Source: a virus (taxonomy: Duplodnaviria > Heunggongvirae > Uroviricota > Caudoviricetes). From it: a stretch of 64,000 nucleotides of DNA. The translations under genes and the position numbers were made by a program. Under the pieces are notes generated by a model, which had not been told where the DNA came from, ran no database searches, and was given only the letters and a program-made list of their open reading frames with translations. The stretch lies in the IMG/VR virus record IMGVR_UViG_3300044799_000708; one strand, given 5' to 3'. Position 1 is the stretch's first letter, and each line of letters starts with the position of its first letter. Positions 14,656 to 51,770 of the stretch are shown one piece after another.

Positions 14656-14853
14656 TTACCAAACACTTTTGAGTTTCTTTTTTGATATTGTCTTGCCCAT
14701 GTCTGCCAGCGACTTCATTTTCTTTTTCTTGCCGTATTTTGTATACATCTGCGATAGGGATTTTCCTTCGAATTTTCCTTTTTTCCCACGCTTTGCTCTG
14801 TCAAGCACGCTTGGCATTCTTACAGCCTGTTCCATTAAACTTATTCTTTTCAT
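14656..14853 (-). CDS. highly basic small protein (65 aa)
   Basis: RAKRGKKGKFEGK..KYGKKKKMK; Lys-rich. Confidence 0.45.
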   Translation of the reverse strand: MKRISLMEQAVRMPSVLDRAKRGKKGKFEGKSLSQMYTKYGKKKKMKSLADMGKTISKKKLKSVW

Positions 14854-21211: not shown

Positions 21212-21430
21212 ATGCGAAAAGGCAAAGAAAAAGGTAAAAGACAGCGAAAAGAAAGCCTGACAAAAGGCGTGATTGGTAAATTCTCTATTGCAAAAAAACC
21301 CAGTAGATTTGATATTGCAAGGGGATTGGAAATGAAGCTGAATCACCCAGAAGGCAGGGGGACAAACAGAAGTCTGGGAAGTAATAAGGCTTTACAGAAC
21401 AAAATCGAACAATTGAGGTCTAAACGGTAG
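21212..21430 (+). CDS. hypothetical basic protein (72 aa)
   Basis: MRKGKEKGKRQRKESLTKG...; uncertain, overlaps convergent ORF by 11 nt. Confidence 0.3.
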   Translation: MRKGKEKGKRQRKESLTKGVIGKFSIAKKPSRFDIARGLEMKLNHPEGRGTNRSLGSNKALQNKIEQLRSKR

Positions 21431-21641
21431 ACTGGAGTTTTTGCTGGTCGATAGAATGTTTCATGTTGTTTAGCTCTTGTATTCTTCTGCGTATTTCCCT
21501 GACCCTTTCGGCAAGTGCGAGAAGTTCCTCCCTGTTGGCATCTGGGTTTGTAGATGCTTCCTCTTCAAGATAACCTTCAAGACCCAGAGAATGCTTTTGA
21601 CCAACCAATTTTATTGGTTGTTTGTCATGCACTCTGGACAA
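21420..21641 (-). CDS. hypothetical small protein (73 aa)
   Basis: Coiled-coil-like (LALAERVREIRRRIQELNN); overlaps downstream gene start. Confidence 0.4.
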   Translation of the reverse strand: MSRVHDKQPIKLVGQKHSLGLEGYLEEEASTNPDANREELLALAERVREIRRRIQELNNMKHSIDQQKLQSTV

Positions 21642-22738
21642 TTTTGACCTCGAAGATGGTCTTCCAAAGCTATTCCATTTTTAATCGCCTGTTCCTTATG
21701 CCAATTGGAATGGTCTGTATGTTCATCCATATTATTCTCCTCCATAAAATTTTTAATTTTTTCTAATATTTTATTTTTGTCCTCATAAATTTCATTTTCC
21801 CATAAAACAAGCATTTTATACCCATATTTTTCATAAATTTTTCTTCGACCATATTCCGTCTGTCTAAATTTTGTAGCACCTTCTCTATGCCAATAATTTC
21901 CGAAAACTTCAATAATTAATTTTTTTCCATTACATTCTATAAAATCTGGATTTATTCCTCCGATAATAAAAGACCCATTACCAACATATTTATATGGTAA
22001 ATTATTTTTTTCAATTAAATTTTTTATTTCTATTTCTGGTTTTGTTGGTCTTTTCAATAATGATTTGAGCATTTTTTCTCTATTTAAGTCAGTTATTTTT
22101 CGTATATTTTTAAGATAAATCAACCAACATTCCCAACTACAAAATTTTCTTCTTGCCATCTTTGATGGATAAATAAGAAATGGTTTCTTACAGGTTTCGC
22201 ATATTTTTCTAACCTTTTCTTTATAATTTGGGTTATTTTCGCCCAATCTATTTTTAGAGAAAAATTTATTTGAACATTCCTGACTACAAAATTTTCTTTT
22301 ACCAGAATTACATTTTTTTGAATGAAACAATTTTATTTCTCCGCAATTTTGGCATTTTATTTTATATTCTTTGTAATTTGGATTATTTTTTCCACGATTA
22401 TAATCACTTTTTCTTTGCCATTCACTATAACATTTTTTATTACAAAATTTACCTATTTTGGACTGTATTTGCGATGGCAATTCTTCTAACCGATTTTTGC
22501 AATTTGGGCAAAAAAGGACAACTCTTTTTTTTCTTCGTTGTGGTTGTGATTCATGTCGTTTTGGGTCTTGCCTATAATATGCATATTGACATTTTTCAGA
22601 ACAAAATTTTATGTTATGAAAACCATCACTTTTATACAACTTTCCACAAAAAATGCAATTTCTATCATGCATTTTTACTCGTTCCCATGCCATGAATATA
22701 TTTAAATAACCCAAATATATAAATAAATATGGCTTCAA
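21611..22738 (-). CDS. homing-endonuclease-like protein: tandem zinc ribbons + C-terminal Vsr/DUF559-like PD-(D/E)xK domain (375 aa)
   Basis: Four CxxC..FCSxxC repeats with recurring G(K/E)NNPNYKE; C-terminal NLPYKYVGNGSFIIGGINPDFIECNGKKLIIEVFGNYWH matches the DUF559/Vsr-like nuclease signature; paralog of 41710..42657. Confidence 0.55.
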   Translation of the reverse strand: MKPYLFIYLGYLNIFMAWERVKMHDRNCIFCGKLYKSDGFHNIKFCSEKCQYAYYRQDPKRHESQPQRRKKRVVLFCPNCKNRLEELPSQIQSKIGKFCNKKCYSEWQRKSDYNRGKNNPNYKEYKIKCQNCGEIKLFHSKKCNSGKRKFCSQECSNKFFSKNRLGENNPNYKEKVRKICETCKKPFLIYPSKMARRKFCSWECWLIYLKNIRKITDLNREKMLKSLLKRPTKPEIEIKNLIEKNNLPYKYVGNGSFIIGGINPDFIECNGKKLIIEVFGNYWHREGATKFRQTEYGRRKIYEKYGYKMLVLWENEIYEDKNKILEKIKNFMEENNMDEHTDHSNWHKEQAIKNGIALEDHLRGQNCPECMTNNQ

Positions 22739-22962
22739 AAGCTATAATCGGGGCTTTTCTCATTCTTATTATTCTCTCGTATATAATGGTCATAAATTCC
22801 CTGAATTTCGATATGGCATACAAGGTTCTGCTTTATATCCCTGCGCTTTTGCTGTTCCTTGTCTTTATGTATATGGGTTTCGGTAACAAGTCTCCTACCG
22901 AAGATGTCGGTGGCTTTCCATATTTAGAATATGCTTATTTCTCCAGTCTCGGCACTTCTTGA
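22729..22962 (+). CDS. small membrane protein (77 aa), uncertain
   Basis: Two hydrophobic helices; only plus-strand ORF in the region and may be spurious. Confidence 0.25.
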   Translation: MASKAIIGAFLILIILSYIMVINSLNFDMAYKVLLYIPALLLFLVFMYMGFGNKSPTEDVGGFPYLEYAYFSSLGTS

Positions 22963-25509
22963 AAAATACAGATAGAGTATGAAGACCGCTATCAAACCGA
23001 TGAAGACATATATCCATATCTGATACGCAGGCAGCACGCAGGCATTCTTCACGCAGCCATATGTGCATATCTGCTCATCTGTCTCTATATATGTCTTGTT
23101 CAGCGAGCCTCTGATATATTTCGTGGTATATTTCACAAGCGTTACGTTATCTTTGCAAGACCATAGTGCATTTTCTTCACCAAGACCCCCGAATGGAAGG
23201 AAGCCCATATAGGCGTAGCCTTTTGACGCTATTTTATCGCCTCCGAAGGCTACAAGCATACCTATTACCTCGTCTTGGCTTGTGGTTATGTTGATGGTAA
23301 GGTTGCTGACATTCATCAATCCGTTTATTATGCTGTTATTCAGTGATGTTATTTCATCCTGTATCATAAACAGTTTGTTCATTATTGTGGTGTTTACCAT
23401 CCCGATTAGATTGTAGATGAGCGTGAGATTATTATTTATGTCTTGAAGTTCTCCCTGAATGGTAAATAATTTTCCCCAGATGCTCTGGTTAACGGCGAAA
23501 ATAGTTGCATTTATTTCGTCTATTTTATTTGACAAGGAAAGATTAGTTGCAGAAATGAGACTGTAAAGGCTGTTATAATGGAGGTTCTGCGTGTAATTCA
23601 TGTCCCAGAGATATGTGAATATTCCGCTTTGGTTGTAGTCGGTGAGAGTCCTGTTCGGGTGAGACCATATTTGCGAAGGCATGGAAAGGATTGTGTTCGT
23701 GATTCCATTTTCGCCGAGAAGCAGTGTTGTTTTTATTGTTGATTCCCTGTAAAATCTCAACTCATCCCAGTTTTGCAGATTTTCTCCTGCCGTATTTATC
23801 GCCAGCGAGGAGTTGTAGTAAAGTTCCGACCAGTAGAAATCATCATATAGGTGATGGCAAGTGGATAAGTATGGGTCGTTGCTGACTATTGTGCTGTTTG
23901 TTATCGGGGAGACATATGTGTAATTGGATATATTTGCAATCGAATCGCAGTAGGGAACTATCAAATTTTTGATGTTTATGATTTGGACATAGCTCCAGTC
24001 TATTTCCCATTTTACATAATTGTCCATTTTTATGCGGTATTCGTATGTATTACCCCTGACCAAATCGATAGGCACGAATATATTGCAACTGCTATCTGCT
24101 TCCGTGAATGTCAATAATGTTTCCAAATCAATATCTGTCCAGCCAGTCCCATTATATTCCTTTAACCAGTATAATGCATCGCAACTGACGCTTGGGGGTG
24201 TTCTGTATTTCCAGTATTGACCATCTTTTGTTTCTAATGCAATTATCGTTATGTTATCTTCAAGTTCGCCTTCTGGCATATTGAATTCTCCTGTATTGGT
24301 GAAAACAGCACAAGCCGATTCCAGAGTTACACTCGTTACTTCAGTTGTTTCACCGCATAGGGTTGTCATGGTATATGGAAGGTCTTTTGACGAAGAGACA
24401 TGGATTTCGCCTGAACCTATTATCTGCTGGTATTGCGATGAAAATTGTGCGATGACATCGACATGGACATAATCGCTTTTGAAAAGATTTAGTGATGCAT
24501 CTGTTATGTTGGTATCGTTGAATAAAATGGACACTATTCCGTTATTTACCAGACCGCTTGCCGTTGCATTAGTTGTTAGTATTGTATTCGTAACCGTGAC
24601 CACGCTTCCTCCTGTGTCTGTAATTTTGTTCGGCAGTTCAATCCAATTTCCGCTTGTGAAATTCTTTATGTGAATGGTGATGCTATCTCCTGATGGTGCG
24701 GAATTCCATATACCTGCCCAAGATATGCCTAATCCTGTTTGCAGTGCTGGCTGTGTCACATTTGTGAAGTTCATTCTTATTTGGATTTGCCGTGTCACAT
24801 TGGTTAATATTTCTCTCACAACCCAGTATACAGAATCCAGAATCCAAGTTGATATATAGTCCCCCGATGTCGTAGTTCCTATGTCCACGATACCAGATGT
24901 GGCATTATTTTGCACAGTTGTCGTTACATAGTAGCAATTCACTATGCTTGGGTATACTCCAACTTCGTTTGGAACTAAAAAATTATAATAATATATCCCT
25001 TCTTCAATAAACGACATCAAAGCTTTTTCAAACAGATGACCACTACCATTTGCTGGTCTGTAAATATCTACATAGCACGTTGCATTATCAACTGGTAGTT
25101 TATTCGCATCCAGAACTTGAACCCATATCTTTCCACATTCTCCGATTGTATATTCTGTCCCATGAACCGTAATCGAAGGTGAATTCTGGTAAACCTGCTG
25201 TTTCATTATCTTCAGTTCATCATATATTTTTTCAAGTGCAGTGGAAGTGTCATTCTTCGGGAGTTCGTTGCATGATGGTGTTTCGAATATTTTTGTGTCA
25301 TCTATCCTGCAACCATATCTGCAATCTTCATGGTAAGTATATGTGCATATTTTTAGTTTCGTATCAAGAATTCCTTTCGTGTATAGGGTAGAATTCGTGC
25401 ATATGTCTGGGCAAGTGCCATTGATAGGCTGTATTTGTATCTGCGCCTTTGCGTTAATTGCTAAAAGAAGAAAGAATATTATCGGAAATATAAAGGCTAT
25501 TTTTTTCAT
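22924..25509 (-). CDS. giant secreted surface (glyco)protein with C-terminal membrane anchor (861 aa)
   Basis: Signal peptide MKKIAFIFPIIFFLLLAINAKA; more than 40 N-x-S/T sequons; C-terminal TM IWIYVFIGLIAVFILYLYF + tail SRSAETGEISIF. Confidence 0.65.
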   Translation of the reverse strand: MKKIAFIFPIIFFLLLAINAKAQIQIQPINGTCPDICTNSTLYTKGILDTKLKICTYTYHEDCRYGCRIDDTKIFETPSCNELPKNDTSTALEKIYDELKIMKQQVYQNSPSITVHGTEYTIGECGKIWVQVLDANKLPVDNATCYVDIYRPANGSGHLFEKALMSFIEEGIYYYNFLVPNEVGVYPSIVNCYYVTTTVQNNATSGIVDIGTTTSGDYISTWILDSVYWVVREILTNVTRQIQIRMNFTNVTQPALQTGLGISWAGIWNSAPSGDSITIHIKNFTSGNWIELPNKITDTGGSVVTVTNTILTTNATASGLVNNGIVSILFNDTNITDASLNLFKSDYVHVDVIAQFSSQYQQIIGSGEIHVSSSKDLPYTMTTLCGETTEVTSVTLESACAVFTNTGEFNMPEGELEDNITIIALETKDGQYWKYRTPPSVSCDALYWLKEYNGTGWTDIDLETLLTFTEADSSCNIFVPIDLVRGNTYEYRIKMDNYVKWEIDWSYVQIINIKNLIVPYCDSIANISNYTYVSPITNSTIVSNDPYLSTCHHLYDDFYWSELYYNSSLAINTAGENLQNWDELRFYRESTIKTTLLLGENGITNTILSMPSQIWSHPNRTLTDYNQSGIFTYLWDMNYTQNLHYNSLYSLISATNLSLSNKIDEINATIFAVNQSIWGKLFTIQGELQDINNNLTLIYNLIGMVNTTIMNKLFMIQDEITSLNNSIINGLMNVSNLTINITTSQDEVIGMLVAFGGDKIASKGYAYMGFLPFGGLGEENALWSCKDNVTLVKYTTKYIRGSLNKTYIETDEQICTYGCVKNACVLPAYQIWIYVFIGLIAVFILYLYFSRSAETGEISIF

Positions 25510-25539
25510 ACATATTACTTACTTGTTTTATTTAAATCT

Positions 25540-28167
25540 TCACAGCACAAGCCCTTGCCATACTGCGACAATCATCAGTATGATAATCGTTATGCCTATC
25601 ATCACCTTCGCTATCATTTCTGGGTCTCTCCAAGAGTATCCGAAATATAAAAGCGTCATAACGGAGAACAGACCCATTATACCGAAGCCAATCGTAAGGA
25701 CAAGTTGACCTGTTATTGAAGGCATCTGGTCTATTATAGGAACTGATGCAAGTATTACATTGAATTCTCTACTGGTATCCATAGTTAATGATGTCATGTT
25801 CGCTACATATCCGCTCTTCGTGGCTGTTATGTTGTGCGGAGTCGAGTTTGTCCTGCTGTTTAATTTTGTTACATAGTAGTCAAGAAGCCACACATCTTCC
25901 GAATCGGAGAATGATGAGACCTCATCGCCTGTTGAGTTGTAGATTTTCACGCTGGCTGAAAGCGGATTCCTGACCGAAAGATTCCAGTAGACGTTGAGCC
26001 TTGAGTAGTTGATATAATAGTCGGTAAGAGTAGTGTTATACAGGCTGTAGGTGTTGTTGTTCCAACATGGAGGATTAATGCAATATGTGTAAATAGCACC
26101 GAAACTGCTGTTTGTTGAGCCTCTTTCTATTCTGCTGTTATAAATGTCAATATGACCATATCTACTGTTGTCTATGGAAAATGCTATGTTGTTTCCATAA
26201 ATATACGAATTGATAATGGTAATATTTAGTTTATCTGTAGGGGAAACTAAAGTATCGAAAGTGCCACTCACAAATGGACTTGCTGCATTATTTATGTTGT
26301 AAAAAGTGGAATTTATTATATCAATTTGTCCTGAACCAGAAATAAACATAGTAATATTATATTCATTGCTGATTTTATCCATTCTGAAGACTGAATTTTT
26401 AAGCGTAATATTGTTTCCGCCTATGGCATTCCCAAAACTGGGAATGGTTGTATTATATACACTGACATTGTCAAGAACAGAGTCATTCACTGAAGACAGC
26501 AGACTGAAAGCCCCCCTCTCCCTTATGAAAATGTTTGAAATTTCAAGATTCTTGCTTCTATAAGCAAATATTCCATCCTCGCCGTCAAATATTCCATTCT
26601 TTATTTTCGAACCAGTGGAATTGCAGAGATATATACCACTTATATTGTCTGGAACTGGGTTTATGTCAACGGTGTCATTCGTGAATAACGGCACTTTGCC
26701 GTCAGTTGCAGTAAGGTTAATGAATGACCTTAACGAGTGGCAGGCACTTCCAGTTGCAGCAAGAATTCTATAATCAAGAACTATGTTGTCATGCGAACTT
26801 ATGTTTTCAAGAGTAGTGTTGTAAATAATTGATAAATCCATCCCAACATAATTGTCATACAATTCAGAGTTTACTATGGTTATATTGTTACTACCAGCAA
26901 CATTCAAGCCTTCTACAATTGGTATACCAATTCTTGTAACATTATGAATAACAAGTTTTTCTGCATATGTATTGTTAGAACCTGAAATCCTTATGCCATA
27001 ACCAAATGAAGATGTTGAATTTATGTTATACACCTCTATATCGCTCAAAATGACGTTATTGCATCTATCAACAAAAAGACCATAGGGGCTGCTATAATTC
27101 ATGTCATAAATCGTAGTATTTTCAATAGTTTCGTTGTTGCAGGGAACTGAAATATATATTCCCCTTTGACCACTTTTCTCGGATATGGAATTGTTTATGA
27201 CAGTATTGTTTACATTCGATAATTGAATGCCATATCTCGAATTGTTCGATACAACCACATTATCGAAAATAGCGAGGTTTACTGAATTCAAAGAAATGCC
27301 ATCTTGGTAATTGGATATGTTTACGTTCCTTGCCGTGAAATTGTAGCTGTTGGAAGAAATGTCTATACCTCTCACATTGGCACTATTTCCGTAAGCGGTG
27401 AAATTCTCGACTATGTTGTTCTTGCCATCAGTGAGGCGCAATGCGGTGCTGTTCGACAGACATCTTATGTTGGTGAAAACAGAATCATTAATCGGCTTGT
27501 CAGCATAAAGGCATCGGTTAGCAGATGTTATGTTTATGTTATTAATTATGTAATTGTTTCCCCCACCTAAGTCAATTCCATTATAGCCATAGATAATGCC
27601 GTTAGAAAATGTCATGTTAAAACCGTAATTAAGTCCAAAAATTGTGGCTTGGCTGCCAGCAGAAACATTAATCATAAAATCATTGAGCGTAAAATTCATT
27701 ATGTTCCCATTGAGCTGAATCCCTTGTGTTGTGACATTGGTAATGGATATGTCGTTCATTGTAATGTTAATGTTGCTGGCATTACTCAAGTATCTCATCC
27801 CATAGCTACCGCCACTAAAGTTAATGTTTGACAAAAGCAAGTTTGTTATTCCGCCCTGAAACTGTATACCCTGATTGGCTGTTGAGTTTATGCTACAATT
27901 TTCAATAGTTGCTAAATTAATTAAGGTTGTAGTATATACTAAACTTTGTAAACCATTTAAGTATGAGCCATTGCAATCCAATGTGATATTGCTGGCAGTA
28001 ATATAAAAGCACCATCCAAGAGGTGAATTTATCGAGGCGTTCATCACATAGGTTTCATTCTCGGTGGAAAGAGTCTGGCAGGTGTCGATGTATGTCAGGG
28101 CAGAGACACTATTACAAAAAATAAATAAAAATAAGAATACAATTGTCAAAATGCCTATCTTCTTCAT
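25540..28167 (-). CDS. giant surface protein with right-handed parallel beta-helix repeats and C-terminal membrane anchor (875 aa)
   Basis: Signal peptide MKKIGILTIVFLFLFIFCNSVSA; repeated N-N-x-I/V-x-N pectin-lyase-like turns (NNTVINNSISEKSGQRGIYIS.., NNVILSDIEVYN..); very many sequons; two C-terminal TM helices. Confidence 0.65.
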   Translation of the reverse strand: MKKIGILTIVFLFLFIFCNSVSALTYIDTCQTLSTENETYVMNASINSPLGWCFYITASNITLDCNGSYLNGLQSLVYTTTLINLATIENCSINSTANQGIQFQGGITNLLLSNINFSGGSYGMRYLSNASNINITMNDISITNVTTQGIQLNGNIMNFTLNDFMINVSAGSQATIFGLNYGFNMTFSNGIIYGYNGIDLGGGNNYIINNINITSANRCLYADKPINDSVFTNIRCLSNSTALRLTDGKNNIVENFTAYGNSANVRGIDISSNSYNFTARNVNISNYQDGISLNSVNLAIFDNVVVSNNSRYGIQLSNVNNTVINNSISEKSGQRGIYISVPCNNETIENTTIYDMNYSSPYGLFVDRCNNVILSDIEVYNINSTSSFGYGIRISGSNNTYAEKLVIHNVTRIGIPIVEGLNVAGSNNITIVNSELYDNYVGMDLSIIYNTTLENISSHDNIVLDYRILAATGSACHSLRSFINLTATDGKVPLFTNDTVDINPVPDNISGIYLCNSTGSKIKNGIFDGEDGIFAYRSKNLEISNIFIRERGAFSLLSSVNDSVLDNVSVYNTTIPSFGNAIGGNNITLKNSVFRMDKISNEYNITMFISGSGQIDIINSTFYNINNAASPFVSGTFDTLVSPTDKLNITIINSYIYGNNIAFSIDNSRYGHIDIYNSRIERGSTNSSFGAIYTYCINPPCWNNNTYSLYNTTLTDYYINYSRLNVYWNLSVRNPLSASVKIYNSTGDEVSSFSDSEDVWLLDYYVTKLNSRTNSTPHNITATKSGYVANMTSLTMDTSREFNVILASVPIIDQMPSITGQLVLTIGFGIMGLFSVMTLLYFGYSWRDPEMIAKVMIGITIIILMIVAVWQGLVL

Positions 28168-28255
28168 TGTCCCACTTTATACTTTACACTAAAAAGGAAA
28201 AGAGAAAGGAGGTTATAGGTATAACTATGCGCATCCAAGATACGGTTTCCTGTCT

Positions 28256-28606
28256 TTACAGGAAGACCGTAAGGATGAACATCAGCACACCAGCACCAAC
28301 TACCAGACCAACTACAGTCGCAGAAAGCAACGGTATTCCAGTCACCTGATTGACTGCGCTGATAAGGGTCGGAATAAGGTATACTGCAATAGTTACGCCA
28401 ATGATACCTTCCACGAATCCCTTCGTGTATTCTCTCACATCGAACTTTGCGTATTCAGCCATATTTCTCACTGAAAAATAGTTCTTCGAGATTGCTAATA
28501 AAGAGGGCTTACCAAAAAAGTGGAGGGATGTCCCCTCAAAAAAATATAGGAATCCTATAAAAAATGTGAACCACCACACAAAAAATTTTATATATGTTAA
28601 GAACAA
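28256..28606 (-). CDS. membrane protein (116 aa)
   Basis: Three hydrophobic helices; divergent from the plus-strand island. Confidence 0.45.
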   Translation of the reverse strand: MFLTYIKFFVWWFTFFIGFLYFFEGTSLHFFGKPSLLAISKNYFSVRNMAEYAKFDVREYTKGFVEGIIGVTIAVYLIPTLISAVNQVTGIPLLSATVVGLVVGAGVLMFILTVFL

Positions 28607-28617
28607 TAAGGTAATTA

Positions 28618-29100
28618 ATGGTAGACATAAATTTTAATTTAACAGAAAGAGAAAAAGGATGGTTAGAAGGTATCATAGATGGCGAAGGTTATCTTGCAAT
28701 TTTAAAAAATAAGAACAAGAATAGTAAAAATGGATATGTATGGTCAATGTATCTATCTGTTACCAGCACAAGAAGGGAAATATGTGAAAAATTATTAAAA
28801 TTGTTTAGTAATGAAAAATATGTTGGCGGTAATATAATTAAAAAACCTGCAAAAAATAAAAATTGCAAGGATGCTTATTATTTTATGGCTAAAAGATATT
28901 CTGCCAAAAGGATTTTGCCTCAATTAAATTTTGTAATAAAAGAAAGGCATAGAGAATTACTAATTAAGGCACTCGACCTTGTAGAAAAATATAGAATAGG
29001 TGAATATTTTATGGGCGGAAATGGAAGACCGCCAGAAGTAGAAAATGAAATTATTAAATTATATGAGGAAATGAAAATATTAAATAAGAGAGGTAATTAA
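28618..29100 (+). CDS. LAGLIDADG homing endonuclease, single-motif type (160 aa)
   Basis: Motif KGWLEGIIDGEGYLAI near N-terminus; size and K-rich C-terminal half fit I-CreI-like homodimeric enzymes; TTTTATATAT 22 nt upstream of ATG. Confidence 0.7.
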   Translation: MVDINFNLTEREKGWLEGIIDGEGYLAILKNKNKNSKNGYVWSMYLSVTSTRREICEKLLKLFSNEKYVGGNIIKKPAKNKNCKDAYYFMAKRYSAKRILPQLNFVIKERHRELLIKALDLVEKYRIGEYFMGGNGRPPEVENEIIKLYEEMKILNKRGN

Positions 29101-29101
29101 C

Positions 29102-29401
29102 TTGCAACTGACTCAAAAAGTTATAGATTTTCTTGTGGAAATGCGAAAAAATAATAATGAAATCACAAAAAGAGACCAGAAAATGTTTGATGATGTGCGT
29201 TTCTATGTTATGACAGGCTATTTGTCCAATATTGGTCTAATATATTGTAATGGTGTCAATAAATACAATCAGAAAAGATGGAAACTTTCTGAAAGAGGGG
29301 AAAAGATAGCCGAATTACTGGAAGGGGTAATGAATATTTATTATGAAAAAGGAGGCAAGGAGAATGGCAAAAAGAAGGGCAAAGGGAATTCTGCTCGATA
29401 G
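29102..29401 (+). CDS. hypothetical protein (99 aa)
   Basis: Plus-island ORF; K/G-rich tail. Confidence 0.45.
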   Translation: MQLTQKVIDFLVEMRKNNNEITKRDQKMFDDVRFYVMTGYLSNIGLIYCNGVNKYNQKRWKLSERGEKIAELLEGVMNIYYEKGGKENGKKKGKGNSAR

Positions 29402-29969
29402 TGACTTTAGCGGAAGGGAAGTTACGGTCTCGATAGACTCTGGCTTTACGAAGATTGATGTTGATAAGAATTTGAAATTTGATTTTTTCACGGATAGGAC
29501 AAAGCCCATTAAGATTTTCCGTGATGGTCTTCTCCAGAAAGATGTAAGCGATTTCTATATCTTCAGTTGGAAGTCGCTGATACCTTTGGAGTTTGAATTG
29601 AGGCAGGAACTATGGAAAAGGGATGAAATATATGAAAGAATGAGGAGCAACAATTTTACCGAAGAGGAAATTGAAAGATTCCAGAAGGATGTGGAGAAGA
29701 AGGAAAAGGAAGGCTACAACATGGATTATTTTGTTTTCAAGGCTTTAGAGCCAGTCGAAATAACGAAACAGCACTGGGCAAAGACGGAATTGCCTTCAAT
29801 CATCAGGGATACTGTTGATATGAGGTTTTTGAAAGCCCTGAAGACCTATACTGAAGGCACGAAAGGCGGAATAGGCAGGGGGGCGATAATAATTTTCATC
29901 GTAATATTTATGGTTTTAGTTCTGGTATATGCATATATGTCGGGAGGGGTATTCAAATTACCAACATAA
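29343..29969 (+). CDS. hypothetical protein with C-terminal TM helix (208 aa)
   Basis: C-terminal GAIIIFIVIFMVLVLVYAYM. Confidence 0.45.
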   Translation: MKKEARRMAKRRAKGILLDSDFSGREVTVSIDSGFTKIDVDKNLKFDFFTDRTKPIKIFRDGLLQKDVSDFYIFSWKSLIPLEFELRQELWKRDEIYERMRSNNFTEEEIERFQKDVEKKEKEGYNMDYFVFKALEPVEITKQHWAKTELPSIIRDTVDMRFLKALKTYTEGTKGGIGRGAIIIFIVIFMVLVLVYAYMSGGVFKLPT

Positions 29970-29972
29970 ACT

Positions 29973-30332
29973 ATGGCTAATATACGAGATAGATTACAGA
30001 AGACCGAAGGCGGTGAGCTTTTCGGTCTCGAAGAAGCTTTGGCAAAAATAAATATGGAACTGCTGAACCCTTCGGGTGAAAAGCTGTATACTGTTTCTGA
30101 TGTGACTGCAACGGAAATCTTTCCTCTTGCATATCTGCTTACGCTTTCAAAAAAACTGGATTCGAAGCTTATGGAAAAATGGGCTGAAAAATTCCTGCTA
30201 TTGAGGATTTCAAGGTTCAGGCTTGGAAGGCGTGAATTTGTTTTTATTTCAGGGGGTCTGCGAGAAGTAAGTGAAGCAAGGAAAGGCGGACAGAAGGGAG
30301 GCTTGGCAAATCTTTTTTCGGGCTTTAAATGA
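29973..30332 (+). CDS. hypothetical protein (119 aa)
   Basis: Plus-island ORF. Confidence 0.45.
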   Translation: MANIRDRLQKTEGGELFGLEEALAKINMELLNPSGEKLYTVSDVTATEIFPLAYLLTLSKKLDSKLMEKWAEKFLLLRISRFRLGRREFVFISGGLREVSEARKGGQKGGLANLFSGFK

Positions 30333-30426
30333 CCCTATTGATAAGTGATAACTATGTATGAAAATATGAATATGTGGGATAGAGTAGATAAAATTTTATT
30401 TCATAAAATATAAAAGGGTGATATAA

Positions 30427-30597
30427 ATGGCAGACGAGCAGCAAAGGCAACTTGATAAGGTGGTTGATGTCGATTCTATGTATGGCTATGAGCCAGAAGA
30501 AGAACAAAAAAAGGAAGACAGAAAAGCGGAAATTCTCAAAGCATTCCTTCACCATTTGAATGAAAGGAAAAAATTATATTTGAGGAAAGTCGAGTGA
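30427..30597 (+). CDS. hypothetical acidic small protein (56 aa, below track cut-off)
   Basis: GGTGATATAAATG RBS; MADEQQRQLDKVVDVDSMYGYEPEEEQ..; stop TGA one nt before next ATG. Confidence 0.45.
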   Translation: MADEQQRQLDKVVDVDSMYGYEPEEEQKKEDRKAEILKAFLHHLNERKKLYLRKVE

Positions 30598-30598
30598 T

Positions 30599-30997
30599 AT
30601 GAGAATAGAAATCACGGAAATAAATGGCAAGGGTCTTAACCTTAAGAATATAGACCAGTCGCTTGATGAATTTACAGAAGCTGCCGAAAAGGAATATGAT
30701 GAAAGCAAGGAAAGGGCTTTGAAAAGTTTTAAGGCAAGGGCATTCGGTTTGACTGGTGCTATACGCAACAAGATGCCAGAATTTATGGTTCATTTGCATT
30801 TTATAGAGGATAACAGGGTCATTTTGAGGAATTCTCTTCCCTTCAGCAAAATTGCGGAGAAGACAGGTTCGTATAAGAAAATGGAAGAGGGTCTGAAGGG
30901 TTATCTGAAGGCAAAGGGATTCGAGTGCGATGTCAAGATTATGAAAGACAAGGAGGAGAGAGATAAAATGGGTGTCTATGAAAGGAGAGTGGAATAG
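30599..30997 (+). CDS. hypothetical protein (132 aa)
   Basis: Coupled to the preceding ORF. Confidence 0.5.
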   Translation: MRIEITEINGKGLNLKNIDQSLDEFTEAAEKEYDESKERALKSFKARAFGLTGAIRNKMPEFMVHLHFIEDNRVILRNSLPFSKIAEKTGSYKKMEEGLKGYLKAKGFECDVKIMKDKEERDKMGVYERRVE

Positions 30998-31038
30998 ATG
31001 GTTCTATTCGGCATCATAGGGGAAAACTGAAATCTATT

Positions 31039-31107
31039 ATGGATTTTAGTCCCAATTTAGGTGCTGGTAAGACCTTAACTCTGGCATATTTGTCTTGGTT
31101 AGTATGA
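31039..31107 (+). pseudogene. orphan Walker-A (P-loop) fragment of the downstream Zot-like ATPase
   Basis: MDFSPNLGAGKTLTLAYLSWLV then stop; different reading frame (phase 1) from the Walker-B-containing ORF 31208 (phase 2). Confidence 0.4.
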
Positions 31108-31207
31108 AAGGAAAGAAAATTCCTATTATGCCCAAAAAAATTGGTTCAGAAAAAGGTCAAAATTATATTGTAATTTCCATCTATATAAAATACCATATAT
31201 CCATATT

Positions 31208-31732
31208 GTGGCTATTGACCAGATTACACAGATGCACGATGGTCACGTTTCACTCGATGAACTTTGGACAATATTAGATGCAAGGGCATCTGCCTCTACG
31301 AGAAATAGGTTTGTTGCGGATATAATGCTGAAATCGAGGAAAAGAGACCTTACCATTATGTTCACGACACAGCTTCTGGATATGCTTGATAAAAGGGTGA
31401 GGAAAATAATGGATTTTACAGCATACACATTACTAAACAGAGTTGAGACATTGGGGAAATGTTTCATCTTTCGTGGTGGTTATCCAAAAGACCATATGCT
31501 TCTCAAGAGTTTCATGTTCTACACACAGCCTGTATTTGGTATGTTCAATACGAACCAAGAAATCCAAATGGAGGAATCAAGCGATAATGCGCCTATGAAA
31601 ATTGTGTTCCAAGAAAGCCCAGAAAAGCCACCGAAATATTTTGATACATGGGAAGATTGTGACCATTATGCTGAAAAGTGGTGGGAAAAAAATGGCAAGG
31701 AACTTTTATCTTTTCTTATAACAGGTCAGTGA
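31208..31732 (+). CDS. Zot-like (inovirus pI-type) P-loop ATPase, C-terminal portion lacking in-frame Walker A
   Basis: HVSLDELW (Walker B hhhhDE) followed by RKRDLTIMFTTQLLDMLDKRVR matching the Zot family R-x-x-D..TQ motif; track start is GTG. Confidence 0.45.
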   Translation: MAIDQITQMHDGHVSLDELWTILDARASASTRNRFVADIMLKSRKRDLTIMFTTQLLDMLDKRVRKIMDFTAYTLLNRVETLGKCFIFRGGYPKDHMLLKSFMFYTQPVFGMFNTNQEIQMEESSDNAPMKIVFQESPEKPPKYFDTWEDCDHYAEKWWEKNGKELLSFLITGQ

Positions 31733-31733
31733 T

Positions 31734-32006
31734 ATGGAAAACGGAAAATATGAAAAATGGTATAGGTATACGGTGAATCATTTTAATAATATGATTCTGG
31801 ACAGGGATGGCTTCGATATTTATGAAAAATACTTGTTCAAAGGAATAGATAAGATGAGACCCTATGCCCCAGACTTATGCAATACTCTGGAACATATGGC
31901 AAAACTTATGAAAAAGAAGAGAAATAACTTGCTTCTTTCTCTCACATTCATGTTTCTTTTCTACCAGTTTCCATTTATTTTCAAATTGAAGAGGATGGCT
32001 TTCTAA
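31734..32006 (+). CDS. hypothetical protein (90 aa)
   Basis: Plus-island ORF. Confidence 0.4.
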   Translation: MENGKYEKWYRYTVNHFNNMILDRDGFDIYEKYLFKGIDKMRPYAPDLCNTLEHMAKLMKKKRNNLLLSLTFMFLFYQFPFIFKLKRMAF

Positions 32007-32251
32007 TGGGCTTGCTTCGTGACCATCTGATTAAAGACCCTGTAATGAAGAGAAAGGTCACTATGGCTATGACAATTGTTATGATGTTGGGTTTGGTCAT
32101 ATCATTATTCATACCGCAGATTATGGGCATACCGTATCAGCAGGGAAGGGACTGGGCAAAGGAGATATGTCTGGTCACTGAAGACGACCTGAAGAATATG
32201 AATATGAGCGAAGGTTTTCTTTATGGAATGGACTTGGAGAAGAGTTCTTAA
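32006..32251 (+). CDS. small single-TM protein (81 aa)
   Basis: TMAMTIVMMLGLVISLFIPQIMGI. Confidence 0.45.
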   Translation: MGLLRDHLIKDPVMKRKVTMAMTIVMMLGLVISLFIPQIMGIPYQQGRDWAKEICLVTEDDLKNMNMSEGFLYGMDLEKSS

Positions 32252-32534
32252 CTATGACGGAAGCAGGGAAGCGAAGATTAGCATAATTTTAGATGTAATA
32301 TTGATTATAACATTTATTTTATGGGGATTTTATGTCACGAATAATGTTTTCGGAAAAGGTCTTGATGACGGTCTTACGGAGATTAGATGCGTGCTTACCA
32401 ATCCGCAGTATCACGATATGATGTGGAACAATAGCGGTTCTGTTTTTTCGGCTGGTTACAATTCAAGTAGATTTGTGGTAGACAAGATGGAACTGCTCAA
32501 GAGCATAAGAAATGGTAGCTTCCAAATCAAATAA
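32223..32534 (+). CDS. small single-TM protein (103 aa)
   Basis: ISIILDVILIITFILWGFYV; last gene of plus island, convergent with minus array. Confidence 0.45.
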   Translation: MEWTWRRVLNYDGSREAKISIILDVILIITFILWGFYVTNNVFGKGLDDGLTEIRCVLTNPQYHDMMWNNSGSVFSAGYNSSRFVVDKMELLKSIRNGSFQIK

Positions 32535-34791: not shown

Positions 34792-35112
34792 TTATTGAAC
34801 CTTCTTTTTCTCTGTAATATTGCCCAGAAAATCATATTCATAGACATAGACTTCCTTTTCTTTGAAAAGCACTTGAAATGGTTTTTTTGGGCAGGTCAAA
34901 TCAAGGGCAATACGCTTTACGTCATCGCCAAGTTTTAATCTGTATCTACAGCATTCTTCTTTACTCAAATCTAAAAACCGCCAGCCATAATGCCAACCAC
35001 GTTTTGTCTTTCTTATGAGATATGGAAATCTGCCAAAGATTACCGTTCCTTTGAATAGGTAATATAATAATTTCATTGCATCATGGTCGTCTTGGTCGCA
35101 TAGGACTCTCAT
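34792..35112 (-). CDS. hypothetical protein (106 aa)
   Basis: Minus array ORF. Confidence 0.5.
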   Translation of the reverse strand: MRVLCDQDDHDAMKLLYYLFKGTVIFGRFPYLIRKTKRGWHYGWRFLDLSKEECCRYRLKLGDDVKRIALDLTCPKKPFQVLFKEKEVYVYEYDFLGNITEKKKVQ

Positions 35113-36361: not shown

Positions 36362-36522
36362 TTCGGGCAGATGACATTATAGTATACGCCTTTTTTATGT
36401 TTTGTTTTATGCTTGAGTCTGAATTTTATTTCGCATTTTTTGCATATTCCAAAGGCTTTGCCTTCATGCAGTTTGGTCTTTGGCACTATTTTTTTGCCCT
36501 TTCTTTCCTTTTCCTCTTTCAT
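36325..36522 (-). CDS. zinc-ribbon protein (65 aa)
   Basis: CKKCEIKF..x..CPKCGKAK. Confidence 0.45.
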   Translation of the reverse strand: MKEEKERKGKKIVPKTKLHEGKAFGICKKCEIKFRLKHKTKHKKGVYYNVICPKCGKAKMKDVKV

Positions 36523-37079
36523 ATTTGCATATCCTCATTTGAAGCCAAATGTTCTTTCTTATAGATAAACATCTTCTTTTTCATTCCCTTCGCATATCTT
36601 ATCGTCTGGGAAGTCCCTCCCTTTACACCTTTATGGTTGAATGCGATAAGAATATCGGAGATTTCAGCGATTATTTTGTTCCTTTCATAGAACCTCTCTG
36701 GTGAAGGTTTTTTCGGGTCTGGGTAGATGATTAGAAATGGAATTCCGTTTTTCTTTGCATATATCTGGGCAAAAGTGTCCACTCCGATTGCGCCACCAGA
36801 TACGATTATGTCCTTTTGCGTGATGTCCAGCCATTCCTTGTTCAGTTTGTCAAGTTTTTCAAGGACTTCCATAAGCCCCCATCCATATCTGTTGCCAACG
36901 ATTCCAATAATCCGAATATTATTTCCTGTTGGTATTCCGATTTTTTTAATAGTTTTCTTCCATGCCTTTACCTTTATATCCCTTGACAGCCTTTCAATCT
37001 GCTTTCTGCTCTCTTGTGTGAAACTCCCAACCGCTAAAGCGTGTGGGCTTCTATTGGACTTTGCCATAGTTGCCTCCAA
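36519..37079 (-). CDS. DprA/Smf-like (SLOG superfamily) Rossmann-fold protein (186 aa)
   Basis: IIGIVGNRYGWG ... IIVSGGAIGVDTFAQIYAKKNGIPFLIIYPD resembles the DprA GxxxGID motif region; overlaps the TnpB 3' end by 29 nt. Confidence 0.35.
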   Translation of the reverse strand: MEATMAKSNRSPHALAVGSFTQESRKQIERLSRDIKVKAWKKTIKKIGIPTGNNIRIIGIVGNRYGWGLMEVLEKLDKLNKEWLDITQKDIIVSGGAIGVDTFAQIYAKKNGIPFLIIYPDPKKPSPERFYERNKIIAEISDILIAFNHKGVKGGTSQTIRYAKGMKKKMFIYKKEHLASNEDMQI

Positions 37080-38169
37080 TAGTTCTGGGCATAATCACAG
37101 ATGCCCCTGAACTTGACATTTCGCCAAGTCCTCGTTTGGCTATGTTTATAGCCCCATTCCTGTCTGCATTGTCCTCGTATCCGCATTTGCATTTGAATAA
37201 TCCTTTATTCCTCTTTCCTGTTTGACCACATTTTGAACAAGTCTTTGATGTATATGCCTCGTTTACCTTTATGACATGTATGCCCTCCCAATTCGCCTTG
37301 TATTCGATATAATTTGATAACTCGGCAAAAGGCATCGTATTGAGTCTGCGATTGAATTTCCTTCCTTTATCACTATTTTTCGTTATTCCTTTTAAGTTTC
37401 CGATTGCAATCACTGAATTGGTCTCTTTTGCCTTATTCACTATTTTTCGGCTAATTTTGTGTAGCTGGTCTTTCACTTTGCGTTTTTCCGTGTTTCCTAT
37501 CCTTTTGATTGTCTTGTTTGCTTTCTTCTCTCCCAATTTCTTCCGCAGATGGAAATAGTGTCCTCTTATTTGTCGAATCTCCCTGCCATAGTATCTGGTC
37601 ATGCCATCGGATAATTGCACCACAGATGCGATTCTCCTGATGCCCAAGTCTATGCCAAGAACATCTTTGTATTCGGTTATCATTTTGATTTCCTTTTCTA
37701 TGGTTATGTGTGCATACCATTCATTGTTTCTTTTTACTATCTTGCTATCACAGAATGTGAAATCCTTCATTTTGTTTTCATAATGTTTGGGTATGTTAAC
37801 TGCGACCCAGAATTGTCTCCTTTGTTTTGTCGGGACTTTGAGCCAGTATTTGAATTTCTTTGTGGGTTGTTTCTCCAATCTTGATACATCATTGCGTAAA
37901 TATAATGGTTGCTCGGTAAGGTTTCTGAATGGTTCTGTTATCATTCGGATAGCCGATGTGACCTGCTGACAATATGTGCTTCCATTCTTGAACCAAGAAT
38001 ATTGTGGCTCTATGTCGTTATTTCTACACTCCTGAACCTGCTGGCATATATTGTTGAAACTATCATATTCCTGTTGGAGTATGGCTTCCTTTATGTTGGT
38101 TAAGCCGACTACTTTTCCCATTAATGATATTTGCTGGTTGGGCTTGGTTCTATTGATGCAAAAGGTCAT
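37051..38169 (-). CDS. tnpB: TnpB-like RNA-guided endonuclease, second and unrelated copy (372 aa)
   Basis: C-terminal zinc ribbon CSKCGQTGKRNKGLFKCKCGYEDNADRNGAINIAKRG (OrfB_Zn_ribbon + RuvC-III); no TnpA. Confidence 0.8.
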   Translation of the reverse strand: MTFCINRTKPNQQISLMGKVVGLTNIKEAILQQEYDSFNNICQQVQECRNNDIEPQYSWFKNGSTYCQQVTSAIRMITEPFRNLTEQPLYLRNDVSRLEKQPTKKFKYWLKVPTKQRRQFWVAVNIPKHYENKMKDFTFCDSKIVKRNNEWYAHITIEKEIKMITEYKDVLGIDLGIRRIASVVQLSDGMTRYYGREIRQIRGHYFHLRKKLGEKKANKTIKRIGNTEKRKVKDQLHKISRKIVNKAKETNSVIAIGNLKGITKNSDKGRKFNRRLNTMPFAELSNYIEYKANWEGIHVIKVNEAYTSKTCSKCGQTGKRNKGLFKCKCGYEDNADRNGAINIAKRGLGEMSSSGASVIMPRTIGGNYGKVQ

Positions 38170-42691: not shown

Positions 42692-43525
42692 TTAACCTCC
42701 CTGTGAAAGATTCAATGGTAATTGAACAAATGGCACTGCATTAGCGTTTCCCGAAAAAAATTGTGGAAGCACGCCATTCCATTTTTGTATTGCCAGCCAT
42801 TTTATGTAATCAGGGCTGTTTCGTAGTTGTGCATTTATTATTTCTATGGATTTCGCCTGACCTTCTGCCTGTGCGATAGCCTGTTGTGCCACTGCTTGAA
42901 TTTCCTTTACCTTATTTTCGGCTTCGAGTGCCTTTTGGACTTGCGTTTGCTTTGATGTTATTGCATTGTTGAAGTCAGGTGGGAACTCGAAATTGGTAAT
43001 GGAAATTGTTTCTACAATTATGCTTCTATTAAGCATCCTTTCTGTCAGTAATGTGTCTATATTCTGCTTTACATTCTCTCTCTTTTGTATCAGTCCTTGT
43101 GCGTCATATTTTGCCGTTACTGATTTTACGACTTCTTGAACCTGCGGTGCAATGACTCTTTCTTGATAGTTTTCGCTCAATTTCTGGTATATTGTATTTA
43201 CATTTGCAGGGTCTATGTGATAGTTGACCGCCACAGTTGTTCTTACATCAAGAAGGTCTAATGATGCTGACTCGCAGGCGACCTCGTATTTTTGTGTTCT
43301 TACTTCCATTGGTCTATAGCTTTCTACGAATGGGGTTATGAAATAAAGACCTTCGTTGAGAATCCTGTCTTCGACAGCACCGAATCGCAATACAACGCCC
43401 CTGTAACCTGCTGGAATTATCGCTATTGTGCTTGCAAGGGTAATTATTATGAACATCAGTAAAATGAACCCTCCTACAAGTCTTGGCAGCGAAAGGTTTC
43501 CTTCTTTGTCAATTAATATTCCCAT
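42692..43525 (-). CDS. SPFH/band-7 (prohibitin/HflC-like) membrane protein (277 aa)
   Basis: N-terminal TM then IPAGYRGVVLRFGAV..ILNEGLYFITPFVESY..MEVRTQKYEV and a long A/Q-rich coiled coil. Confidence 0.8.
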   Translation of the reverse strand: MGILIDKEGNLSLPRLVGGFILLMFIIITLASTIAIIPAGYRGVVLRFGAVEDRILNEGLYFITPFVESYRPMEVRTQKYEVACESASLDLLDVRTTVAVNYHIDPANVNTIYQKLSENYQERVIAPQVQEVVKSVTAKYDAQGLIQKRENVKQNIDTLLTERMLNRSIIVETISITNFEFPPDFNNAITSKQTQVQKALEAENKVKEIQAVAQQAIAQAEGQAKSIEIINAQLRNSPDYIKWLAIQKWNGVLPQFFSGNANAVPFVQLPLNLSQGG

Positions 43526-48737: not shown

Positions 48738-49475
48738 TTACATCAGCCTCCCAAGATTATGCTTCTTTCTGATTTCAGTGAATTCCTTTAGCTTTTCTAT
48801 AAGTTCCAGAACCTTTTCCTTGCTCGGCTCTGGTAATTTATGTCCTTTGCTGTCTGCGCCTATATTGACCCATTTTGGTTTTGCTGTCTTTATTATTTCC
48901 ACCATATCTTTGACATCAAAATCCATTATCGGCTCTACTGTGAGCATAGTTTCGAATCCTGCCTTTCCTATTTTTGCAAGTGACCAAGCCCTTTCAATAA
49001 CATAAGGTGCTTTGCTGATTTTATAGTCCCTGTTGGTTTCGATTGTTGTCCCTATGACTGAATTTTTAGGTAGAAGGTCTTTTACTGCTAATATTCCATT
49101 GGGGTTTTTGCTCTGGAAAAGGTATTTGTTGTCGAATTTCCTGCAGTGTTCCAAAGCTATTTCAATCCATTTTCTGGGTATTTCTTTTGCAAACATATCG
49201 CATGAGCTTCCGACAAAAATGAAATTGCCTTTGCCTAAATCCGTTTTCAGTTCCTGCTCATCAAATTTCAATTCGCCGAGAGGGAATATCTTCATATAGC
49301 AATATTCACAGTCATGTGGGCATCGCCCCTTGATAAAATTCAGCGTGTGCGTTACGAAATCATACATATTGCCTTTCGATTCTCTCATCATATAAATCCT
49401 CCGAATGTTTTTTTGTAGCATTCCTTCTGGAATTTGCATTCTATTCCTTGTCCTCCGACCTCTTTTGGTGAACAC
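48738..49475 (-). CDS. radical SAM enzyme, family unassigned (track 245 aa; probable start at MM 49391, about 217 aa)
   Basis: GRCPHDCEYCY = CxxxCxxC(Y) cluster near N-terminus; GGAGGATTTATATGATG RBS at 49391; the track start is GTG. Confidence 0.6.
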   Translation of the reverse strand: MFTKRGRRTRNRMQIPEGMLQKNIRRIYMMRESKGNMYDFVTHTLNFIKGRCPHDCEYCYMKIFPLGELKFDEQELKTDLGKGNFIFVGSSCDMFAKEIPRKWIEIALEHCRKFDNKYLFQSKNPNGILAVKDLLPKNSVIGTTIETNRDYKISKAPYVIERAWSLAKIGKAGFETMLTVEPIMDFDVKDMVEIIKTAKPKWVNIGADSKGHKLPEPSKEKVLELIEKLKEFTEIRKKHNLGRLM

Positions 49476-51750: not shown

Positions 51751-51770
51751 TCCAACTATTATGAAAGATT

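Follow-up and report, generated by a model that had tools for sequence, protein, structure and literature searches.

Probable bulge-helix-bulge mini-introns in protein-coding genes of an archaeal virus

Background

A bulge-helix-bulge (BHB) intron interrupts the cbf5 pre-mRNA of the Desulfurococcales and Sulfolobales, and its splicing has been demonstrated experimentally (Watanabe 2002; Yokobori 2009, PMC2738675). Cleavage at a BHB takes place between the second and third bases of the bulge (PMC2738675), and in cbf5, where the motif is a relaxed one, the cut at that position is made by the tRNA-splicing endonuclease (EndA). The present analysis concerns a 64,000-nucleotide (nt) stretch of viral DNA (IMG/VR record IMGVR_UViG_3300044799_000708, referred to below as 'the window'), in which the gene for a Zot-like ATPase contains two inserts that are probably archaeal BHB mini-introns. 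Like the cbf5 intron, which is 33-39 nt long in several species, these inserts and their counterparts in related loci are short, lie within coding sequence, disrupt an essential motif, form a relaxed BHB, and have been gained and lost among relatives. The cbf5 intron is confined to one cellular gene, one site and one archaeal lineage, whereas the introns described here are viral, occupy five sites in a single gene and are present in at least three genes; moreover, filled and empty alleles are found here at 92% protein identity, and splicing, which for cbf5 is an experimental result, is here a prediction.

Non-canonical introns in the tRNAs of Thermoproteales and other archaea have reportedly been described by Sugahara in 2008 and by Fujishima in 2010. 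Such introns are short, occur at many positions, often adopt a relaxed BHB, show signs of transposition and are associated with EndA enzymes of broad specificity; they reside in tRNA genes, and not in protein-coding genes or viral genomes. In Haloferax volcanii, the archaeal splicing endonuclease acts on the mRNA of HVO_1309, which has a 46-nt BHB intron in its 5' untranslated region (UTR) (PMC7714728). That intron, unlike those of the window, is cellular and located in an untranslated leader, and therefore does not interrupt a reading frame. Among the reports found, cbf5 thus provides the only BHB intron in archaeal coding sequence, with HVO_1309 representing another in a 5' UTR, and the literature searches found none linked to viral protein genes or to archaeal viruses. 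Certain 12-bp indels in the Sulfolobus rudivirus SIRV1 have been proposed as putative introns (Peng et al., as reported in PMC2738675); like the inserts described here, they are short and situated in protein-coding genes of an archaeal virus, but in the account given there they are in-frame 12-bp units for which no BHB structure was shown and splicing was never demonstrated, and which may simply be translated.

The split ATPase gene

Searches with the C-terminal open reading frame (ORF) of the ATPase gene, at 31208-31732 of the window, returned relatives of two kinds, one of 165-195 amino acids (aa) starting near Walker B and one of 214-225 aa starting MVLFGIIGELGAGKTLxLTxLxWxNWxRK. (Related loci and proteins are denoted below by L and P numbers, respectively.) The intact homologues read MVLFGIIGELGAGKTL..SW.NW.RK, and their comparison with the window exhibits two discrete inserts and hence not a single-base shift. 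The gene is accordingly laid out as follows, with a slash marking the point of insertion here and below.

30998..31024, plus strand: ATPase exon 1, for the beta-strand that precedes the P-loop (MVLFGIIGE), which matches the N-terminus of intact homologues
31025..31056, plus strand: putative BHB mini-intron 1, 32 nt, at site a, between GE and LGAGKT, with an in-frame TGA
31057..31100, plus strand: ATPase exon 2, 44 nt, encoding LGAGKTLTLAYLSW and the first two bases of a Leu codon; contains Walker A (the P-loop)
31101..31137, plus strand: putative BHB mini-intron 2, 37 nt, at site c, within the L codon of SWL/NW, with an in-frame TGA
31138..31732, plus strand: ATPase exon 3, with Walker B (IVAIDQ...DELW), the SRKR motif and the C-terminal domain, as read from the spliced translation

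Exon 1 matches the N-terminus of the intact proteins P0007, P0009, P0012 and P0014 and that of the intronless locus L057. A sequence-only reading of the window had placed a Walker A motif, SPNLGAGKTL, at 31039-31107 in a different frame and followed by stops, which is correct, the piece ending in a TGA; what it overlooked is the true N-terminus, exon 1, which shares the frame of the C-terminal ORF. Exon 2, identified by frame analysis and spliced translation, differs in frame from exons 1 and 3, and exon 3 begins NWFRKRSKLY..., back in the frame of exon 1. Removal of both inserts gives an ORF of 666 nt encoding 221 aa, which reads MVLFGIIGE, then LGAGKTLTLAYLSWL, then NWFRK..., and is co-linear with the uninterrupted L057. 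The latter is the closest relative (92% protein identity), has neither insert, and possesses a continuous ORF. Predicted spliced junctions are GGGGAA joined to TTAGGTGC for intron 1 (in longer form, ATCATAGGGGAA joined to TTAGGTGCTGGT) and CTTGGTT joined to AAATTGGTTC for intron 2 (in longer form, TTGTCTTGGTT joined to AAATTGGTTCAG). The ATPase gene is therefore probably intact, and split into three exons by two archaeal BHB mini-introns. Gene callers report only a 174-aa C-terminal ORF in the window, and of the 122 family proteins that the searches returned, about 30 have been called with a truncated N-terminus and have no P-loop.

Runs of A in the region might be held to indicate that the interruptions are sequencing or assembly artefacts, the probability of which is close to nil. 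Against this stand the lengths of the inserts (32 and 37 nt), a second contig (L060) in which they recur unchanged and which does not differ over the ATPase region, and homologous inserts in independent JGI, ENA and Logan assemblies; together these exclude an assembly or indel error.

Several irregularities at the start of the gene were also observed. An ATG at 31039-31041, within intron 1, is in frame with exon 2, such that splicing of intron 2 alone could start a variant ATPase at MDFSPN, without the first beta-strand; this is probably coincidental. The start ATG of the ATPase is replaced by ATT or ATA in L057 (at 2691), L002 (at about 3797), L067 and L016, directly after the upstream stop, which suggests non-canonical initiation or re-initiation. 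In L055, at about 220-250, an apparent single-base frame change in ...TLTLAFL/SWHNW... exists besides a site-d intron, and may be either an error or a real frameshift.

Anatomy, register and covariation

A total of 78 loci were fetched, most of which carry a relative of the ATPase, and extra DNA within the gene was spotted by the spacing of conserved motifs. In 18 distinct loci, 24 putative introns of 21-37 nt were recognised, with up to two in one gene copy, at five sites.

Site a': GI/IGE
Site a: GE/LGAGKT
Site b: GAG/KT
Site c: SWL/NW
Site d: ADE/LW

These introns have a common layout, in which the end of the upstream exon pairs over 4 bp with the 3' end of the insert, a 3-nt bulge lies on the 5' side, and the remainder of the insert forms a hairpin. 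An excision rule was formulated that calls for at least three of the four central pairs and an intron helix of at least 3 bp, with cuts two bases into each bulge, and a greedy search confined to excisions that comply with it was scored by the regained similarity to the N-terminus of the family. A rule-compliant excision regains an intact N-terminus in every disrupted locus. All four central pairs are present in 20 of the 24 introns and at least three in every one of them, and the intron hairpin comprises 3-12 bp. By comparison, a random pair of start and end points in the window passes the loose test at a rate of 8e-3; under a strict test, with all four central pairs and no fewer than 5 bp in the intron helix, the rate is 1.9e-4. 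No intron has more than five equivalent registers. A separate scan, filtered by uninterrupted homologues, yielded three further introns, which are counted among the 24, and the matches of such a homology-filtered scan over 473 kb fall almost entirely within the ATPase gene. Scans of the window and loci that asked of a BHB only that it merge ORFs were far too noisy, and were superseded by the homology-filtered and strict-fold scans.

Lowest-energy folds computed with ViennaRNA form a complete BHB, with both outer helices and two 3-nt bulges, for L017 a', L017 b and L034 a'; for the other ATPase introns, including both in the window, the folds present a BHB without the outer exon-exon helix. In intron 1 of the window, the central helix pairs GGG with CCC and includes one G·A mismatch, the 3-nt bulge is AAA, and the intron hairpin has 11 bp; its 32-nt register is that of the site-a introns in L020, L051, L054 and L047. 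Intron 2 has a lowest-energy fold in which UUGG pairs with CCAA over 4 bp, next to a 3-nt bulge and a hairpin, and a cut after the second base of the bulge joins TGG TT to A AAT TGG, which reads WLNW; homologous site-c introns in L002, L051 and L030 display compensatory changes. In RNAalifold analyses of three ATPase-site alignments, 3, 8 and 8 pairs are changed on both sides, and the wobble bases of exon codons covary with the intron bases to which they are paired, namely those of Gly GGN at site a and of Ala/Ser at site b. The helices pooled together contain 222 Watson-Crick, 22 G·U and 2 A·C pairs, and this excess of G·U over A·C pairs indicates that the pairing is maintained on the sense RNA and not on the DNA.

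An in-frame stop is present in 19 of 21 introns, including every one with a length that is a multiple of three, so that they cannot simply be translated through. The sequence-only reading had considered that the gene might need frameshifting, which does not agree with interruptions that are stop-containing inserts of 21-37 nt, some of them multiples of three, and that are not slippery sites. Short hairpin inserts with a stop near the take-off site are known from T4 gene 60 and from the Magnusiomyces mitochondrial 'byp' elements, where they reside in essential genes and can be mobile, and a programmed translational bypass of that kind would account for hairpin-forming inserts of this length in which a stop is encountered early. 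For the ATPase gene such bypassing is exceedingly unlikely. Unlike in gene 60 and the byps, matched take-off and landing codons are not kept, since identical ones in the right frames occur in 2 of 22 inserts, consistent with chance; and the pairing that covaries is that of the upstream exon with the 3' end of the insert, beside a fixed 3-nt bulge, which is the geometry of an EndA substrate and not that of a take-off hairpin.

Selection, and filled and empty alleles

Over the 24 codons of exons 1 and 2, the window differs from the intronless L057 by 16 synonymous and 2 non-synonymous changes, of which one is the ATG versus ATT start, and such a ratio is incompatible with a dead N-terminus. That the ATPase is a pseudogene in a decaying module (as the sequence-only reading had proposed), disrupted by junk insertions, might be argued from the stops and frame changes that interrupt it and from the truncated gene calls, in the window and in the family. 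It is nevertheless very unlikely, because in addition to the synonymous excess the entire module is conserved and syntenic, the stems covary, and inserts of this kind are found in 18 loci at five precisely defined sites, every insert leaving the exact intact protein when removed in the BHB register.

The patch of exon sequence that adjoins the introns (window 30957-31138) is about 72% identical in nucleotides to L057, compared with 87-90% in the flanks, and the same pattern is found between L015 (filled, 1533-1573) and L016 (empty), so that the two pairs together give 72-76% against 87-95% in the flanks, the excess divergence being at synonymous sites. This divergence would fit introns that arrived by recombination together with flanking exon sequence (that is, by co-conversion). 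No target-site duplication was found in either pair of alleles, and a blastn-short search of about 470 kb of related DNA returned no further copies of any intron. Being gained and lost among close relatives, the introns behave as mobile elements.

Presence/absence polymorphism, hairpins and the lack of target-site duplications would also be expected of small palindromic DNA elements, and two IS200/IS605-type TnpB genes are located in the window. Elements of this sort might be removed by a route other than EndA and ligase, or might be kept, with the ATPase then made in pieces or as its C-terminal part only. This explanation is unlikely. The 22 G·U versus 2 A·C pairs point to selection acting on the sense RNA and not on DNA, the related DNA harbours no further copies, the 3' end of each insert complements its own exon context, as a transposon end would not, and the C-terminal part by itself, having no P-loop, could not act as an ATPase. 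Neither does a known RNA family or ribozyme account for the inserts: Rfam gave no match to the window at gathering score, nor any to 30900-31300 at E <= 1, and no known ribozyme is as short as these inserts. BHB mini-introns thus remain the preferred reading.

Relatives of the ATPase also contain inteins, at four sites and in some cases with LAGLIDADG endonuclease domains.

Intein site G/SGKT, in the P-loop: L033, L048, L058/L059 and P0028
Intein site before C/LDEFW: L030, P0008 and P0043
Intein site after DELWxI: P0058
Intein site LTY/CFT: L049, L051, L054 and P0113

Introns and inteins are combined within one gene copy in L058, L030, L049, L051 and L054. The P-loop intein point is flanked by intron sites a and b, each at a distance of 6-7 nt, and the Walker B intein point is followed 9 nt further on by site d; this closeness, seen with few intein alleles, may reflect no more than a shared preference for conserved motifs. 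The 220-aa ATPase gene is, in any event, an unusually dense arena of selfish elements. A further proposal, that BHB mini-introns constitute a mobile and non-neutral class of element in archaeal virus genomes, arriving with donor exon sequence and clustering near intein points, is put forward as a tentative and rather doubtful one. By breaking up conserved DNA, such introns could hide the gene from intein homing endonucleases or from clustered regularly interspaced short palindromic repeat (CRISPR) spacers, at the cost of a dependence on the tRNA-splicing enzyme of the host; through that dependence, the production of the ATPase could also be gated or timed.

BHB introns in other genes

When both strands of the window were scanned under strict conditions, with agreement with the lowest-energy fold as a requirement, 12 candidates emerged. 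The best two by energy were ATPase intron 1 and a minus-strand element at 21596-21621, the latter being the top match.

21596..21621, minus strand: third putative BHB intron of the window, 26 nt, canonical and with both outer helices, lowest-energy fold of -22.7 kcal/mol
21420..21730, minus strand: conserved 94-aa CxxC/coiled-coil gene split by the 26-nt intron (exon 1, 21730-21622; exon 2, 21595-21420)

Besides the 4-bp helix and two 3-nt bulges, the fold of this element has an outer helix. The predicted junction on the minus strand is CATGACAA joined to AGCATTCTC (in longer form, GAGTGCATGACAA joined to AGCATTCTCTGG), and its translation, CPECMT/KHSLGLEGY, has the junction and spacing of nine uninterrupted homologues of 93-95 aa (P0123-P0130 and P0134). 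Introns at the same site occur in L074 and in L075/L076, the allele of the latter being represented on 14 contigs; RNAalifold detected two compensatory pairs, and L077 provides the empty site. In L058, a 23-nt BHB intron with an in-frame stop (14815-14837, minus strand) splits a homologue of the window ORF at 34792-35112 (minus strand), and its removal would give ...LGDDK joined to NRIRLDLNCPKK, co-linear with the intact gene of the window. At least three genes of this virus group thus appear to carry BHB introns.

Overlapping the third intron of the window is a 375-aa ORF (21611-22738, minus strand), with zinc-ribbon repeats and a DUF559/Vsr-like endonuclease domain, that extends into exon 1 of the split 94-aa gene in the same frame, with no stop between them. 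As the 94-aa gene stands alone in L074 and L075, the endonuclease ORF looks like an insertion specific to the window, possibly of the homing-endonuclease type. A 24-nt element at 6376-6399 (minus strand), with a BHB-like fold of -18.9 kcal/mol, was considered as an intron and is not claimed, being in frame, stop-free and not supported by homologues.

The ATPase family and its viral relatives

The sequence-only reading had recognised the C-terminal part of a Zot-like ATPase, an assignment that further comparison upholds. The ORF at 31208-31732 matches Zot (PF05707) at E 3e-3 (17.5 bits, below the cut-off of 20.3) and, in PHROG, family 1675 ('protein I of M13') at 1.8e-5; the spliced protein scores 17.9 bits against PF05707, also below the cut-off, and 44 of 83 full-length relatives match that family at E <= 0.01, the best at 1.2e-7. 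Among solved structures, the family profile has a single significant match, 2R2A (4.9e-5). An AlphaFold model of the relative P0007, built on an 83-sequence alignment, has a pLDDT of 93.6 (an earlier run with 15 sequences gave 55), and its best match among solved structures is again 2R2A, the Zot N-terminal domain (E 3.4e-7, TM-score 0.54-0.60), its best matches in a viral library being inovirus Zot proteins (TM-score 0.62-0.65). The GAGKT motif and the DELW block are invariant across the family.

Like Zot and pI (PF05707), the window ATPase has a P-loop ATPase fold with Walker A and Walker B. Unlike them it is only 221 aa long, without a transmembrane segment (no hydrophobic segment was found in the 221-aa product) and without their C-terminal domain, and it is followed by separate small membrane proteins. 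The two single-transmembrane proteins described after the ATPase by the sequence-only reading are indeed there, with 81 and 103 aa, behind a 90-aa ORF. Their position had been likened to the arrangement after gene I of filamentous phages; in Ff phages, the small membrane proteins are encoded upstream of gene I and not after it, which speaks against that likeness.

The nearest viral relatives of the ATPase are those of the Lokiarchaeota virus WyrdV1 (MZ666939) and of Muninn virus, both of which are viruses of Asgard archaea and carry His1-like capsid genes. Over its N-terminal half, the window ATPase is 31% identical to that of WyrdV1, the gene for which is annotated 'AAA+ ATPase related to pI', and on this sequence similarity it resembles the ATPases of Asgard spindle-type viruses. 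The proposed relationship with inoviruses does not hold up against these relatives, nor against the nature of the window itself. An inovirus module combines pI with the secretin or coat genes of a small single-stranded DNA genome; the window is an archaeal element of double-stranded DNA, at least 64 kb in length and with no DNA match among phage records. The ATPase is therefore Zot/pI-like, and belongs to an archaeal virus morphogenesis module rather than to a decayed inovirus.

An unannotated homologue of the ATPase, with 28% identity and a continuous P-loop region, was also noted in Muninn virus (L062, OM716000) at 3992-4672; it has no canonical start codon upstream, and its end overlaps that of the polymerase gene on the opposite strand.

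The surrounding module

The ATPase gene is located in a series of ten consecutive plus-strand ORFs (28618-32534), the rest of the window being almost wholly minus-strand coding.

28618..29100, plus strand: free-standing gene for a putative single-motif LAGLIDADG-type endonuclease, 160 aa, containing WLEGIIDGEGYLAI with the motif LEGIIDGEG
29102..30997, plus strand: five module genes with no function assigned, each found by tblastn in 14-37 related loci with the order kept
29102-29401, plus strand: module gene, 99 aa
29343-29969, plus strand: module gene, 208 aa, with a C-terminal transmembrane segment
29973-30332, plus strand: module gene, 119 aa
30427-30597, plus strand: module gene, 56 aa
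30599-30997, plus strand: module gene, 132 aa
31734..32534, plus strand: three small genes 3' of the ATPase, kept after it in 3-13 loci
31734-32006, plus strand: downstream gene, 90 aa
32006-32251, plus strand: downstream gene, 81 aa, with one transmembrane segment (hydrophobic segment)
32223-32534, plus strand: downstream gene, 103 aa, with one transmembrane segment (hydrophobic segment)
22924..28606, minus strand: divergently transcribed partner genes of the module, with the same layout in L001
28256-28606, minus strand: small hydrophobic protein, 116 aa, in 20 loci with up to 97% identity
25540-28167, minus strand: beta-helix, adhesin-like protein with a C-terminal anchor, 875 aa (PF13229 Beta_helix)
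22924-25509, minus strand: beta-helix, adhesin-like protein with a C-terminal anchor, 861 aa (PF13229 Beta_helix)

The GC skew (guanine over cytosine) and the AT skew (adenine over thymine) both reverse sign over 28-33 kb, and the description of this region as a multi-gene island on the opposite strand stands to that extent; it is not the only one, as a further plus-strand cluster is situated at the left edge of the window (88-2412). Its base composition is that of its surroundings, direct repeats flanking it were sought with no meaningful result, and its gene order recurs in 10-37 loci, always beside the same small hydrophobic protein and large beta-helix genes, which goes against the integration event that had been suggested. 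In an uncultivated group of archaeal viruses, the island forms a conserved morphogenesis module. For the five genes at 29102..30997, neither Pfam nor PHROG gave a significant match. The 116-aa hydrophobic protein is, as a guess, a candidate for the capsid protein, and its BLASTP similarity to His1-like capsid proteins is not significant.

A putative single-motif LAGLIDADG gene does lead the island, as the sequence-only reading had it. The 160-aa ORF matches PF00961 at E 4.8e-4 (21.4 bits, below the cut-off of 23.1) and, in phmmer comparisons, solved LAGLIDADG enzymes at 6e-5 to 1e-3 (aHE15 at 6e-5 and I-SmaMI at 9e-4), and is on this similarity a plausible endonuclease. One other locus, L054, shares the gene at the same position (58% identity); it is absent from L057 and L001, and occupies what in L057 is a 20-nt intergenic gap. 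It is a recent, variable accessory insertion at the head of the module, and the sole recent insertion in the island.

As a whole, the window is densely packed with genes, among them the beta-helix adhesin-like ones, and shows archaeal-type features. Searches found no tRNA genes in it, and no match between its DNA and phage records. The two TnpB (IS200/IS605 OrfB) genes lie at 1189-2412 (plus strand) and 37051-38169 (minus strand); the first is 56% identical to the TnpB of an Aenigmatarchaeota genome bin, and the second abuts a DprA/SLOG-like ORF at 36519-37079. A first genome scan with the ATPase profile, aimed at the host, gave no match. Relatives of the ATPase occur in genome bins labelled Nanopusillaceae, Bathyarchaeia and Parvarchaeota, and these labels, together with the TnpB similarity, point to DPANN or TACK hosts, which is suggestive and not proof. 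In two Nanopusillaceae bins (L070 and L071; GCA_018920305.1 and GCA_038835965.1), an intact module is found beside Rad51/RadA and UvrD-helicase genes, and may represent a provirus or a mis-binned viral contig, as a hint of a DPANN host. Accessory genes on the minus strand (42692-43525, 51139-52358, 48738-49475, 53983-55383 and 56036-56605) encode SPFH/Band 7, TPM-domain, LemA, two radical SAM (one of them SPASM) and YopX-like products, a cargo that is unusual for a virus with a spindle-virus-like module.

Proposed splicing and its implications

In the proposed mechanism, the last bases of the upstream exon would pair, in the pre-mRNA, with the 3' end of the insert to form the 4-bp helix; the 5' cut site would be held in the 3-nt bulge, the remaining insert would fold as a hairpin, and the 3' cut would fall two bases past the 4-bp helix. 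Both sites would be cut by the EndA of the host, and the exons joined by an RtcB-type ligase, giving the 666-nt ORF and the 221-aa ATPase. We infer the excision itself, and the enzymes that would perform it, from the anatomy, register, covariation, strand, exon selection, and filled and empty alleles of the introns.

Several points weigh against this proposal. The case for splicing is built on sequence, and not on RNA. The type of EndA in the host is of consequence, because most of the motifs, those of both ATPase introns of the window included, are without the outer exon-exon helix, and relaxed BHB cutting needs broad-specificity (alpha-beta)2 or epsilon2 enzymes, according to PMC5829648. A search of the 31 largest window ORFs revealed neither EndA nor RtcB, the smaller ones being outside that search. 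The introns lie within about 140 nt of the start codon, where transcription-coupled ribosomes could compete with folding. Finally, the lowest-energy conformer of intron 1 predicts a 30-nt excision (31026-31055) that would create a GAA ATT TAG stop, and in the productive 32-nt register the bulge is slid by one A and the outer of the central-helix pairs is the G·A; in the folding model, that register would be near-equivalent to the lowest-energy conformer, from which it differs by one A-U pair slid across the bulge.

On the anatomy, register, covariation and selection that have been described, the most probable account is still that an archaeal virus carries several polymorphic BHB mini-introns within its protein-coding genes. 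The split and truncated gene calls mean that these proteins are systematically mis-annotated as fragments. The alleles at 92% identity, the five sites within 200 nt and the compensatory changes give access to the gain, loss and movement of BHB introns. If the introns are spliced, then an archaeal virus relies on the tRNA-splicing machinery of its host for an essential morphogenesis gene, and protein-coding BHB introns would be far commoner in uncultivated lineages than has been thought.

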